Counted from the first letter of the stretch, positions 5,100-39,616 are shown. The stretch: 40,147 nt of DNA from a virus (IMGVR_UViG_2778261267_000001), one strand, 5' to 3'. The notes: a model not told the origin generated them from the sequence alone. Made by a program: numbers and translations.

Positions 5100-5684
5100 T
5101 TATTGTTTGTTTTTTTCGTTCTGGCTGATGACAAATTCAATGTAACTTTCGATCTTTGCCTTCTCTGTTTCGGGTAACAATGCGTAGCGCGAGCGGTCAT
5201 AGTTGATAGTCGCAGGGTCGTGCGGGTGAATCAGTAATTCATAGCCGTGACGCCCGAATGCGGATGCAACATTCTCCAGGGTGGAAATGGAAACGCTGAC
5301 CTCATTGTTTAACAGGCGGCTGATTGTCACCTGGGCGACGCCGGATGCGCGGTGAAGTTTTCCCTGAGTTGAAAGGTCGCGGCTTTCGCTCATCCAGCGT
5401 TCCAGGTTGTGAGCCGCCAGCTGACCAATGTCGCTTGGGCCGACAGGCTGAAAACCTTCCTGAGAAAGCGAGCGATCGATATCAAGCCAGTTACGGGGTT
5501 TATTGGCGGCAGCTTCAATTTTTCGCGCAACCTGGTCGCCGATAACCTTCTTGCCAAGAGCCCAGCGGTTTACCAGATTTGCCTGAGTTCCAAGTTTTTC
5601 TGCCATCCGCGTCTGAACACCATTGAATTCACGGTCGATCAAGTCGTTGAGATTTTGCCTGCGGACGTCCTGGATACTTTTCAT
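5100..5684 (-). CDS. CI-like phage repressor (HTH DNA-binding protein, no obvious peptidase domain)
   Basis: 194-aa ORF divergent from a cro-like gene; HTH-like segments (MAEKLGTQANLVNRW, VAQVTISRLLNNE). Operator-like palindromes lie on both sides of the gene. Confidence 0.7.
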   Translation of the reverse strand: MKSIQDVRRQNLNDLIDREFNGVQTRMAEKLGTQANLVNRWALGKKVIGDQVARKIEAAANKPRNWLDIDRSLSQEGFQPVGPSDIGQLAAHNLERWMSESRDLSTQGKLHRASGVAQVTISRLLNNEVSVSISTLENVASAFGRHGYELLIHPHDPATINYDRSRYALLPETEKAKIESYIEFVISQNEKNKQ

Positions 5685-5739: not shown

Positions 5740-5802
5740 TTACCCAACAGGTAAATGCACCCCATAGGTAACTATCCTTGATTTTTGTTACCTTATGGGT
5801 GA
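5740..5802. promoter_or_regulatory. Divergent immunity promoter/operator region (OR-like) with three tandem operator-like sites
   Basis: Perfect TTACCCAACAGGTAA at 5740-5754, imperfect GCACCCCATAGGTAA at 5756-5770 and TTACCTTATGGGTGA at 5788-5802. A candidate rightward promoter (-35 TTGTTA 5786-5791, -10 TATTAT 5808-5813) overlaps the third site. Confidence 0.65.
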
Positions 5803-5838
5803 ATATTTATTATCTGAAATAAATATCAGGCAATAGCT

Positions 5839-6090: not shown

Positions 6091-6116
6091 AGACCGCCAT
6101 CCGGCGGTCTTTTTAT
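6091..6116 (+). terminator. Intrinsic terminator after the cro-like gene (tR1-like position)
   Basis: Stem AGACCGCC / GGCGGTCT with loop ATCC (6091-6110) followed by TTTTT. Confidence 0.7.
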
Positions 6117-6219: not shown

Positions 6220-6420
6220 ATGGAAATCATTACACGTATTGATGCCGCAAAGCGCGGACTTAAACGCTACTACACCGGAAAAACATGTAAGCACGGACAT
6301 GACAGTGAACGCTGGGTTTACAACGGACACTGTGTTGAGTGCACCATGGAATCAAACCGTCGCATCAGGGCAGAGATTAAGCAGATCATGATTAATTCCT
6401 CCCCACAACACTCAAGCTGA
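6220..6420 (+). CDS. Hypothetical small Cys/His-rich protein (cII position)
   Basis: 66 aa from the ATG at 6220; the track's upstream extension from 6157 is hydrophobic junk. Contains CKHGH...HCVEC spacing suggestive of a zinc ribbon. Confidence 0.45.
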   Translation: MEIITRIDAAKRGLKRYYTGKTCKHGHDSERWVYNGHCVECTMESNRRIRAEIKQIMINSSPQHSS

Positions 6421-6435
6421 TAGCGGAGATTAATC

Positions 6436-7251
6436 ATGAGCAGACATGCAACAGATTGGGCCTGGGAGACAGATCCAGGCAGCTCATCATTAAAGCTCAT
6501 ACTGCTCTCGATGGCTGACAGAGCCGATGAATATAACCTCTGCTACCCCAGCATAGAACGCCTAGTTAAAGACACTTGCCTGAATAAAAAAACCGTGCAG
6601 GCCGGACTTATATCGCTCATGAAAATGGGGCTTATTTCAGATACCGGAGAGAGAAAGGGAGCGACGAAAAGAGTGCGGGTTTTCTCTCTTAATATAACCA
6701 AAAACGGGAACATTAAAGGCAGCCGGGAAGGGGGTAATGAACCCAAAAACGGTAATGTTACCGAAAACGGGAATATACCCAAAAACGGGATGCTGAATGA
6801 TCCCAAAAACGGGATGTTGAATGATCCCAAAAACGGGATCCAGAACCAGTCATATAACCAGTCATTTAATCAAGAGAGGGAGAGCAGGACAAAAAACGGG
6901 GATTCTGTGCATCATGACCCAGGCGCAAACAACGCCGTGATGAATAACTTTGTTCCTCCTGGTGGGCCAGGGCAATTAGGCAAATTTGTCATGCATGAAC
7001 AATGGCAGCCATCAGATGACTTTCTTCGGAAAAGCTCATTGCAGGGAATCTACCTGGATAGTCTGCCAACGGCACAGGAACTTGCAGAGTTCAGAATTTA
7101 CTGGATGGCTGAGGGTAAGGCATACCATCAGGCACAGTGGGAGCAGAAGCTGGCAAGGCGGCTGCAGATTAGCAGACAGAAGCAATCAACATTAACTGAT
7201 AACAACGTTCCGCACTGGAACAGCCCTGAAGCATGGGAGGATTTCTTGTGA
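6436..7251 (+). CDS. Replication initiator (lambda O-like role) with an internal repeat-encoding segment
   Basis: 271-aa ORF directly upstream of and overlapping the P-like gene. Middle of the gene carries tandem DNA repeats (iteron-like) encoding PKNGMLND repeats. Confidence 0.75.
   Translation: MSRHATDWAWETDPGSSSLKLILLSMADRADEYNLCYPSIERLVKDTCLNKKTVQAGLISLMKMGLISDTGERKGATKRVRVFSLNITKNGNIKGSREGGNEPKNGNVTENGNIPKNGMLNDPKNGMLNDPKNGIQNQSYNQSFNQERESRTKNGDSVHHDPGANNAVMNNFVPPGGPGQLGKFVMHEQWQPSDDFLRKSSLQGIYLDSLPTAQELAEFRIYWMAEGKAYHQAQWEQKLARRLQISRQKQSTLTDNNVPHWNSPEAWEDFL
6696..6845. repeat. Iteron-like tandem repeats inside the O-like gene (candidate origin of replication)
   Basis: Five to six copies of CCAAAAACGG(G/T)A, including two adjacent 24-bp units (TCCCAAAAACGGGATG[C/T]TGAATGA at 6778-6801 and 6802-6825). 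Confidence 0.7.
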
Positions 7252-8033
7252 ACAACGTTTTTACCGCAATACAAAACCGTGACGGAGAAGCCCTTTCTCG
7301 CATGTCAGGTTATGAGCATCAGTACACCAACAATGACAACGTAGTGAACATGTCAGCAGAGAGGCTTGTTGATGCCCTTTTCAAACAGTTGAAACAACTG
7401 TTTCCGGCGGCAGTGGTAACCAACCTGAAGACGCCAGAGCAGGAAGTTGCTGCAAAACAGCAGTGGATTGCTGCGTTTGCTGAAGGAGGGATCCGAACCC
7501 GTGAACAGGTTTCTGCTGGTATGCGCCACGCCCGCGCCAGTGAATCTCCGTTCTGGCCGTCGCCAGGGCAATTTATCAAGTGGTGCAAAGACAGCAAGAT
7601 GGTTCTTGGCGTCACCATTGACGATGTGATGGCGGAGTTTCACCGGTACAGCAAGGAAAAAAGTTTATATCCTGGCGGTCCCGAAAGATTCCCGTGGCGA
7701 CATCCGGTTATGTACTGGGTCGTATGTGATACACGCCGTGCAATGTATCAGCGCCAGCTTAGCGAGATTGAGGTTGAGAAACACGCGCGCAGGCTGCTCG
7801 ATGATTGGGCGAAAAAGGTGGCTTCCGGACAGCAGATACCCGATCCGGTGATCAGCATACAGGCAAAGCCAGAACCCATGAGTACGCCTCCGGACACAGG
7901 GAGAGACGTTTACCACCCGCCAGGGCGAAGTTTCGGGTGCATGCCTAACGCCGCCACCCTGGGGGGAATAACACCGGCGCAGTGGCTGATGGAGGAATAC
8001 AGGCGGGGAAAGGCGGCAGGATTTATCAAGTAA
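7233..8033 (+). CDS. Replication protein P-like helicase loader
   Basis: Clear resemblance to lambda P as I recall it (e.g. AGMRHARASESPFWPSPGQFIKWC versus lambda GMRVARRQNRPFLPSPGQFVAWC). Start may instead be the GTG at 7248 overlapping the O-like stop. Confidence 0.85.
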   Translation: MGGFLVNNVFTAIQNRDGEALSRMSGYEHQYTNNDNVVNMSAERLVDALFKQLKQLFPAAVVTNLKTPEQEVAAKQQWIAAFAEGGIRTREQVSAGMRHARASESPFWPSPGQFIKWCKDSKMVLGVTIDDVMAEFHRYSKEKSLYPGGPERFPWRHPVMYWVVCDTRRAMYQRQLSEIEVEKHARRLLDDWAKKVASGQQIPDPVISIQAKPEPMSTPPDTGRDVYHPPGRSFGCMPNAATLGGITPAQWLMEEYRRGKAAGFIK

Positions 8034-8495: not shown

Positions 8496-8556
8496 ATCGA
8501 CGATCTTTTTAGTTATCAATGTAATCAATAAGTTATGTGGATAAGCGAGGGTAAAG

Positions 8557-16093: not shown

Positions 16094-16170
16094 TGGCGTG
16101 GCATGCAGGATTCGAACCTGCGACCAACCGCTTAGAAGGCGGTTGCTCTGTCCAACTGAGCTAATGCCAC
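16094..16170 (-). tRNA. tRNA-Arg (anticodon UCU, decodes AGA)
   Basis: 77-nt cloverleaf folded by hand: acceptor GTGGCAT/ATGCCAC, D-stem GCTC/GAGC, anticodon stem ACCGC/GCGGT with loop CTTCTAA (anticodon TCT), T-arm GCAGG-TTCGAAT-CCTGC, discriminator G, encoded CCA. Confidence 0.85.
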
Positions 16171-39004: not shown

Positions 39005-39038
39005 GAACAAAACCCTCTGTTACTACAGAGGGTTTTTT
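39005..39038. terminator. Bidirectional intrinsic terminator at the putative prophage right boundary
   Basis: ACCCTCTGT-TACT-ACAGAGGGT hairpin flanked by AACAAAA on one side and TTTTTT on the other. Confidence 0.7.
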
Positions 39039-39076
39039 ATCTTCAAGAATCATAGGCTTGAAGTTAGTAACATCGA

Positions 39077-39616
39077 TTAATTAAACCAGCTGTCCGATTT
39101 GTTCTCTTCTGCTTTGCCCACGCTTTTCATCAGATCGCGACCGCCTTCAGTCATATTTCTGTTGGCGTCAGCTTCAGATTGCACCACATCGGTTTGCGCA
39201 GCTTTGTGCTTCAGTTCCTGATCGATAAATTCGTTTTCGCGCTTAACGCGGGCTTCTTCTTTTGCCAGCGCCAGTTTTTGTTTCTGAATCTCTAAGCTGC
39301 GTAGCTCATCTTCATAACTTTGATCGCGTTTTTTGTCCGCAGTGGCTTCGGCGTCCAGTTTATCCTGACGAGCTTTCTTATTTGCCGCTGCCGTTGCCGC
39401 TCTTTTGTTAGCGGCGGCCTGGGCATTTGCGCGACGTTGCTTCTCTTGCTGGATTTCCCTGTTGCGCTCCGCGACCCATTCGTCATGCTGCCTTTGCTCT
39501 TCATTTTTACCTTGCTGTTCCGCTTCTGCGACAGCAGAGAGTTGATCCTGCAATGATGAGGCGATAGCCGGATAGCTTAAGGAGGCTAAGATGGCGCAAA
39601 GAAAAACTTTCTTCAT
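39077..39616 (-). CDS. Exported coiled-coil protein (signal peptide; Gln/Lys/Ala-rich)
   Basis: 179-aa ORF with a signal peptide (MKKVFLCAILASLSYPAIA) and a highly charged helical body; may be host flank or prophage cargo. Confidence 0.55.
   Translation of the reverse strand: MKKVFLCAILASLSYPAIASSLQDQLSAVAEAEQQGKNEEQRQHDEWVAERNREIQQEKQRRANAQAAANKRAATAAANKKARQDKLDAEATADKKRDQSYEDELRSLEIQKQKLALAKEEARVKRENEFIDQELKHKAAQTDVVQSEADANRNMTEGGRDLMKSVGKAEENKSDSWFN

Follow-up and report, generated by a model that had tools for sequence, protein, structure and literature searches.

Why does the replication-initiator gene of a phage carry a tandem array of short, closely similar DNA units in the middle of its coding sequence, and does replication start there? 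The gene (6436..7251, + strand) encodes 271 amino acids (aa) in IMGVR_UViG_2778261267_000001, a viral stretch of 40,147 nucleotides (nt) that was analysed over its full length and is referred to here as the window; it is a phiV10/epsilon15-like (Uetakevirus) E. coli phage. We conclude that the array at 6698-6838 is very probably the iteron part of the phage replication origin and that, as in lambda, it lies in the DNA coding for the linker of the initiator. Comparative evidence supports this conclusion, and from it we infer origin activity, binding, unwinding, helicase recruitment and firing.

The preliminary description had placed tandem repeats at 6696-6845, and the sequence confirms them. 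The motif CCAAAAACGGGA occurs six times on the + strand with at most one mismatch, within 141 base pairs (bp), with starts at 6698, 6743, 6761, 6779, 6803 and 6827. No further copy at this threshold was found on either strand of the whole window, and 100 dinucleotide-preserving shuffles gave an expectation of 0.22 +/- 0.44 copies with a maximum of 2. Iteron 1 (6698..6709) reads CCAAAAACGGGA, iteron 2 (6743..6754) reads CCAAAAACGGTA, with CCGAAAACGG at the same place in most relatives, and iteron 3 (6761..6772) reads CCGAAAACGGGA. Iteron 4 (6779..6790) is the first of the 24-bp-spaced units, and in its core, ACCCAAAAACGGGATG, the right half-site GGGAT alone is intact. Iteron 5 (6803..6814) and iteron 6 (6827..6838), the last one ahead of an A+T-rich segment, both have the dyad core ATCCCAAAAACGGGAT, a 16-bp partial palindrome of the form ATCCC-AAAAAC-GGGAT with a central A-tract. 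The start-to-start spacings of 45, 18, 18, 24 and 24 bp were obtained in a separate repeat search, and the repeat families agree with those of Tandem Repeats Finder, which returned an 18-bp unit (3.1 copies, 6733-6788), a 24-bp unit (2.6 copies with 97% matches, 6778-6839) and a 12-bp unit, AACCAGTCATAT (2.2 copies, 6844-6869), across 6733-6869. When two mismatches were allowed, three scattered minus-strand matches appeared elsewhere in the window, along with a degenerate seventh + strand copy, CAAAAAACGGGG (6890..6901), which reads TKNG and lies 63 bp past iteron 6. We considered this copy as a functional iteron and dropped it because close relatives, with TKSG, TKTG or TKTR at this place, do not conserve it; it is probably a decayed iteron.

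The array occupies nt 263-403 of the 816-nt open reading frame (ORF), or aa 88-135, and lies between two recognisable domains of the initiator. The N-terminal winged-helix-type DNA-binding domain (aa 1-87; 6436..6696, + strand), defined by N-domain alignments and by a match to Pfam HTH_36 (PF13730, 2e-10, aa 18-67), is the presumed iteron reader. The DnaT-like C-terminal domain (aa 181-264; 6976..7227, + strand) matches Pfam DnaT (PF17948, 1.2e-15, aa 184-252) and is the presumed contact for single-stranded DNA (ssDNA) and/or the loader-helicase complex. Over its full length the protein matches PHROG family phrog_1032, 'replication initiation protein' (1.5e-107). It is 96.6-98% identical to the phiV10-group genes, and its homologues in a protein search were all near-identical E. 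coli alleles. The gene immediately downstream (7248..8033, + strand) encodes a helicase loader of the lambda P family, with matches to Pfam Phage_lambda_P (PF06992, 1.5e-56) and to phrog_109, 'P-like helicase loader' (5.6e-93); its GTG start, taken from the phiV10 annotation, overlaps the initiator stop (GTGA). The window gene therefore has the layout of an HTH_36 + DnaT_C phage initiator, with both domains in one protein and a P-like gene adjoining.

A phmmer search against the PDB matched the initiator to the E. coli DnaT C-domain chains 6aep, 4ou6, 9zbt and 2ru8 at E values of about 1e-19. The alignment paired initiator aa 180-264 with DnaT residues 85-169, leaving the N-terminal 180 aa unaligned, and identity to the ssDNA-binding C-domain of DnaT was about 50% (6aep, 4ou6, 9zbt). 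We rejected the identification of the initiator as primosomal protein DnaT, as the N-terminal oligomerisation and PriB-binding half of DnaT is missing; the names 'primosomal protein' and 'DnaT-like ssDNA-binding domain-containing protein' cover one domain only, the C-terminal one. A single-sequence AlphaFold2 model had a mean predicted local distance difference test (pLDDT) score of 37.5 and was unusable. Among viral relatives with identical N-domain and array, the protein ends in one of two C-tails (7200-7251 in the window), ...VPHWNSPEAWEDFL (as in the window and Tyrion) or ...LDWHNTDWIDEVWDEINSRTS (as in ZX5), the latter recalling the ...LTNTDWIYGVDL of lambda O. The C-tail variant probably matches the allele of the downstream loader.

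An origin had been predicted here by the preliminary description, and the predictions that can be computed held: the repeats lie between the initiator domains, a P-family loader is next, and the anatomy is lambda-like. Two features of lambda-type origins were found in the window: an array of four or more direct repeats, internally dyad-symmetric and set between the two domain-coding parts of the initiator gene, and a P-family loader gene immediately downstream. The O gene of lambda has four annotated iterons (ATCCCTCAAAACGAGGGA and variants) at 39034-39118, with an A+T- and purine-rich stretch after them; the iterons are O-binding sites and the A+T-rich tract acts in unwinding (PMC7466680). 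Each array is located midway in the initiator gene, flanked by the segments encoding a DNA-binding N-domain and a C-domain, and in each the direct repeats contain a dyad around a central A-tract (lambda ATCCCTCAAAACGAGGGA, window ATCCCAAAAACGGGAT), on a common TCCC...A-tract...GGGA plan in which the window iteron is 2-3 bp shorter. In both, the P-family loader gene lies directly downstream, overlapping the initiator stop. The A+T-rich stretch on the promoter-distal side of the lambda iterons has a candidate counterpart in the window. The two differ in the N-domain (HTH_36 in the window, Phage_rep_O in lambda) and in the C-domain (DnaT-like as opposed to that of lambda O), and the window has six iterons with 16-bp cores at 18-/24-bp spacing where lambda has four of 18-19 bp at 20-24 bp. 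The A+T-rich tract of the window is also much weaker. The description of the gene as 'O-like' is thus right for function and layout and wrong for family, the protein being HTH_36 + DnaT_C and not Pfam Phage_rep_O. The array is very probably a lambda-style origin on a sister initiator family, and may be distantly related to ori-lambda.

Other phage origins show the same arrangement to different degrees. P22 has an annotated rep_origin within gene 18, at the same relative position, in which iterons are followed by an A+T-rich stretch bearing short tandem repeats. However, gp18 belongs to Phage_rep_O (6.7e-38), the P22 iterons (TCGGTAAAAC) are unrelated, BLASTP found no pairwise similarity between gp18 and the window initiator, and a DnaB-type helicase gene (gene 12) adjoins gene 18 where the window has a P-type loader. 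In the origins of the Shiga toxin (Stx) phages (933W, P27), iteron number differs between related phages, 6 being found where lambda has 4, and replication is affected by the additional iterons (PMC7466680). Iteron number varies between relatives in the window group as it does among Stx-phage origins, although the latter carry true lambda O/P alleles, whereas the window group has another initiator family and wider variation (1-8 24-bp units). Iteron plasmids (RepA/RepE/pi) also use a winged-helix initiator that reads tandem direct repeats beside an A+T-rich region, and their iterons lie outside the rep gene, usually with DnaA boxes. The window differs from such oriV-type origins in that its iterons are inside coding sequence with no DnaA box nearby.

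Homologues were collected from seven annotated phages and from 65 loci of species-representative bacterial genomes found with a 4-sequence-alignment search; counts were made on the 66 genes of at least 200 aa, using nt 231-560 as the array zone and 9-mers with at most one mismatch. The sample covers Escherichia, Edwardsiella, Vibrio, Providencia, Proteus, Pseudoalteromonas, Marinomonas, Acinetobacter, Burkholderia, Sphingobium, Desulfovibrionaceae, Superficieibacter, Wohlfahrtiimonas, Arsenophonus, Halodesulfovibrio and others. The preliminary description had taken the absence of repeats from homologous initiators as evidence that would count against an origin; the opposite was found, with arrays at the same place in 66/66 homologues. 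Every gene had at least three copies of some 9-mer in the array zone and 63/66 had at least four, compared with 0/66 for the upstream 330 nt, 0/64 for the downstream gene and 3/66 for the last 250 nt of the gene. Degenerate arrays were visible by inspection in the weak-scoring homologues. The median array starts at nt 302, right after the conserved N-domain, and ends at nt 415, and the dominant spacings in the family are 17, 18, 22 and 24 bp.

We then considered which part of the protein the repeats go with. HTH_36 is present in all 66 members, the DnaT domain in only three and Phg_2220_C in one, and the downstream gene encodes a P-family loader in nine, a DnaB-type helicase in three, an IstB/DnaC-like protein in three and varied products in the rest. 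The number of window-type iterons correlates with N-domain identity (Spearman 0.36, p 0.003) and not with C-domain identity (Spearman 0.08, p 0.52). In tblastn searches of phage genomes, the N-terminal half and the repeat-encoded segment were common to Edwardsiella GF-2, Vibrio Her, Acinetobacter AP22, Burkholderia Bcep176 and others. The DnaT-like C-terminal half was common to SPN1S, Tyrion and ZX5, which have unrelated N-termini and zero copies of the motif. In GF-2, a window-type N-domain with ATCCCAAAATTGGGAT iterons is fused to a visibly lambda-O C-terminus, and distant N-domains come with other repeats: GTCCCAACAATGG in Acinetobacter, CCCCCGAAC in Desulfovibrionaceae and CCAGTCGGAAAAATCCGACC in Sphingobium. 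Since the repeat type tracks the N-domain and not the exchanged C-domain or the downstream partner, N-domain and array appear to behave as one module, as would be expected of an origin-recognition domain and its sites.

An A+T-rich segment next to the iterons is also a feature of the family. Across the 66 homologues, A+T content peaks 20-70 nt past the last iteron at 67%, compared with a baseline of about 55% (+10.5 percentage points), and the peak is positive at 58/66 loci (Wilcoxon p 1e-10). The candidate unwinding segment of the window (6844..6873, + strand) comprises 30 nt with 70% A+T and contains the tandem 12-mers AACCAGTCATAT and AACCAGTCATTT. The 12-bp tandem to the right of the iterons, AACCAGTCAT(A/T)T, has two copies in the window and three in phiV10, and the QNQS reading of the 12-mer is kept at the array ends of distant homologues (GTQNQSLEP in GF-2 and Vibrio Her), NQS being present in P22 gp18 as well. 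The unwinding region may begin at this tandem.

The alternative that survives best is that the repeats bind the initiator for copy control, autoregulation or incompatibility, through titration or handcuffing, with unwinding and initiation taking place elsewhere in the genome. Iterons do have such roles in plasmids, the A+T-rich segment beside the window array is weak, and a range of one to eight 24-bp units would be easier for a titrating array to tolerate. An origin elsewhere, however, is not indicated by the rest of the window. The motif forms no other cluster in the 40 kb, and no DnaA-box cluster was found near the replication genes, the nearest DnaA-box-like site being at 8536; such sites number 14 in the window with 9.4 expected, which is not above chance. 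The minimum of the cumulative GC skew, at about 5-6 kb, falls where the direction of transcription changes and is not informative in a phage of 40 kb. The family-wide A+T peak falls directly past the array, and an equal layout is the origin in lambda and the Stx phages, where iteron number is variable as well (4 as opposed to 6; PMC7466680). A control array is without positive support, and we consider it unlikely.

It could also be argued that the repeats are a low-complexity, slippage-prone peptide linker of PKNG units between the two domains, with no role for the DNA in cis. The region does encode a repetitive Asn/Gly/Pro-rich segment (TKNGN...PKNGN.TENGN.PKNGMLNDPKNGMLNDPKNGIQ in the window), and its insertions and deletions are always in frame, although this would be expected in any case, since a shift of frame would abolish an essential protein. 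What is conserved across the family is the DNA. Copies are spread over more than one reading frame in 50/66 arrays, some with 17- or 22-bp spacings, so that the same DNA repeat encodes different peptides; the single DNA word CCCAAAAACGG is read as PKNG, TQKR or PQKR inside one gene (for example in GF-2, EPP-1, PPompW and L112). Synonymous sites within the window iteron cores are fixed: Pro is encoded by CCC at 4/4 positions inside cores and at 1/10 in the rest of the gene, Gly by GGG at 5/6 and 5/16, and Asn by AAC at 6/6 and 11/20, respectively. Because the nucleotide sequence is kept while the peptide changes, the data support a cis-acting DNA element as the likely identity of the repeat, with constraint that does not appear to act on the peptide, and a mere linker is very improbable.

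The least probable account, which we regard as barely credible, is that neighbouring iteron halves (GGGAT...ATCCC, then T5 on the minus strand) form antisense terminators protecting the early operon: a terminator scan did return three minus-strand hairpin and T-run sites (6829-6810, 6805-6786 and 6763-6750), but their stems are short (5-6 pairs, 3 of them G-C) with loops of 4-8 nt, such hairpins arise automatically from tandem half-palindromic sites with an A-tract, the single strand of 6690-6880 does not fold significantly more stably than shuffled sequence (z = -1.6), and the Acinetobacter and Desulfovibrionaceae members, with their other iteron sequences, have no T-run. These hairpins are probably a by-product of the iteron dyads. 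Rfam gave no match at the array locus, its sole match in the window being a tRNA.

Several observations weigh against reading the array as an origin of the lambda kind. In the candidate unwinding segment, A+T content is 70% when measured over 30 nt but falls to 56-60% over 50 nt, a level equalled by 50-nt windows to the left of the array and inside it. Because the signal is modest and matched at these places, the unwinding site is uncertain, and no other part of the model is less secure. As the three units spaced at 24 bp arose by recent duplication, their identity to one another says little by itself, and it is the older copies and the family that carry the argument. Physical linkage, and not recognition, could account for part of the correlation between iteron type and N-domain. 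The initiator has no match to Phage_rep_O (PF04492) even at E <= 10, under conditions in which lambda O and P22 gp18 score 7.4e-37 and 6.7e-38. When 31 N-domains were compared with a profile of lambda O and P22 gp18 using hhalign, the HTH regions aligned with a probability of 28% and an E value of 6e-4. When viral contigs were scanned with the N-domains of lambda O and P22 gp18, all matches were identical to lambda O, and because of this the profile-profile comparison with the lambda family stayed weak. Finally, no published experiments on binding or firing in the HTH_36 family were found.

Taking the array as the origin, we propose the following sequence of events. Rightward early transcription would express the initiator and the P-like loader, and dimers of the HTH_36 winged-helix N-domain would bind the six iterons, each of which presents a partial dyad, (A)TCCC-A5C-GGGA(T), around its A-tract. 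The resulting nucleoprotein complex would destabilise the adjoining A+T-rich 12-mer segment (~6844-6873). The DnaT-like C-domain could then contact ssDNA and/or the P-DnaB complex, leading to loading of host DnaB and the start of replication.

The array had also been flagged as a likely hotspot for recombination or assembly error, and variation among close relatives bears out the hotspot. The spacing pattern 45, 18, 18, 24, 24 occurs in 56 of 78 independent viral contigs whose N-domains are essentially identical, and about a quarter differ from this modal array through gained or lost 18- and 24-bp units, giving proteins of 263-295 aa. The window carries the modal allele, so nothing suggests a collapsed assembly, and its array is not an assembly artefact. 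Among the four phage records compared, BP9 has one 24-bp unit fewer and phiV10 one 12-mer more. The copies of the gene on E. coli chromosomes are 770-864 bp long, the full-length ones differing mostly in 18- or 24-bp steps, and protein clusters of 279, 287, 291, 292 and 311 aa were found. The 311-aa cluster contains seven PKNGMLND units and a terminal PKNGIQ, eight PKNG units in all, spaced at 24 bp. All changes in array length are in frame, in units of 12, 18 or 24 bp, and the number of 24-bp units ranges from 1 to 8.

A relative of this gene is known from bacterial chromosomes. DopC and DopE of Cellvibrionales and Oceanospirillales are a domesticated O/P pair (Brezellec et al. 2017, PMC5509034); DopC combines HTH_36 with DnaT_C, is encoded next to the P-like DopE, and was reported to be without iterons and not an origin (PMC5509034). 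In the same study, HHpred placed the N-terminus of lambda O in HTH_36 (PMC5509034). DopC and the window initiator are alike in having an HTH_36 N-domain and a DnaT_C domain and in being encoded directly upstream of a P-family gene; they differ in that DopC is chromosomal and reported iteron-free (PMC5509034), whereas the window gene is phage-borne and has kept its iterons. This fits the retention of iterons only where origin function is retained, and the window gene is a phage-type counterpart of the domesticated DopC/DopE pair. The match of the initiator C-domain together with the architecture of DopC (PMC5509034) suggests that phage initiators working with helicase loaders share the DnaT C-domain as a module or are its source.

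These comparisons lead to a broader proposal, which we hold with even confidence for and against. HTH_36 initiators may form a large and taxonomically wide class, in Gamma-, Beta- and Alphaproteobacteria and Desulfovibrionaceae, whose origins would lie in linker-coding DNA in any of the three frames. N-domain and iterons would make up a portable module, recombined with interchangeable C-domains (DnaT-like, lambda-O-like and others) and loaders (P, DnaB, DnaC-like). On this view, the phage initiator lost its iterons on domestication and survives as a remnant in DopC, and perhaps also in the C-terminal half of E. coli DnaT. If this is true, origins become predictable from sequence in thousands of prophages in which the gene is labelled 'primosomal protein'.

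Origins of this kind are already known; in the records examined no origin annotation was found at the site of this array, and none over the initiator gene in the retrieved phiV10 RefSeq stretch. We found no published account of an HTH_36, phiV10 or epsilon15 origin, although one could be described in subscription journals. For phiV10/epsilon15-like (Uetakevirus) prophages the array provides a concrete origin candidate, relevant to about 8% of complete E. coli genomes; the RefSeq gene named 'DnaT-like ssDNA-binding domain-containing protein' is present in 424/5,426 of them. A defined origin would be useful for phage-derived replicons and for reporter phages, phiV10 being already in use for O157 detection, and it would aid the interpretation of read-depth profiles after induction. 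At the family level, the array is a clean example of a coding stretch dictated by a DNA-binding site and not by the encoded peptide. As array length truly varies between strains, differences in it should not be 'corrected' as assembly errors.

The surrounding genes follow the plan of the phiV10 group. In phiV10-like phages (Uetakevirus, epsilon15 group) the initiator gene is 95-98% identical at the DNA level, and phiV10 shares with the window its gene order and its repressor and terminator annotations. Upstream of the operon that bears the array lies a divergent gene (5100-5684, - strand) for a repressor with two helix-turn-helix motifs, followed by a pR-like promoter candidate, TTGTTA-17-TATTAT (5785..5813, + strand), which comes from a consensus scan alone and is located between the repressor and the rightward early operon. 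By analogy with lambda, this promoter may activate the origin by transcription. A small ORF occupies the cro position upstream of the replication genes, and an intrinsic, tR1-like terminator (6091..6110, + strand) precedes them as well; the phiV10 annotation has a terminator at the equivalent site. A 66-aa ORF (6220-6420, + strand), placed after the terminator and before the initiator gene, encodes the motif C-x-H-x-H ... C-x2-C (YTGKTCKHGH...NGHCVEC). It has no Pfam match, is kept in phiV10 (p42) and epsilon15 (gp40), and its product may be a small zinc-binding early protein.

The only tRNA gene of the window, for tRNA-Arg (anticodon TCT), lies at 16094-16170 on the - strand between the early and structural regions and would read AGA, a rare codon in E. 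coli. A phiV10-type repressor, initiator and loader also occur at the end (133.4-137.2 kb) of PP488543.1, Escherichia phage BP9, a 138-kb record classed as Vequintavirus (rV5-like), where this module is 95% identical to the window; PP350014.1 (phage PH444, 114.9 kb) contains it as well. Its presence in these records suggests chimeric assembly or contamination by a prophage contig and not a genuine part of the genomes.

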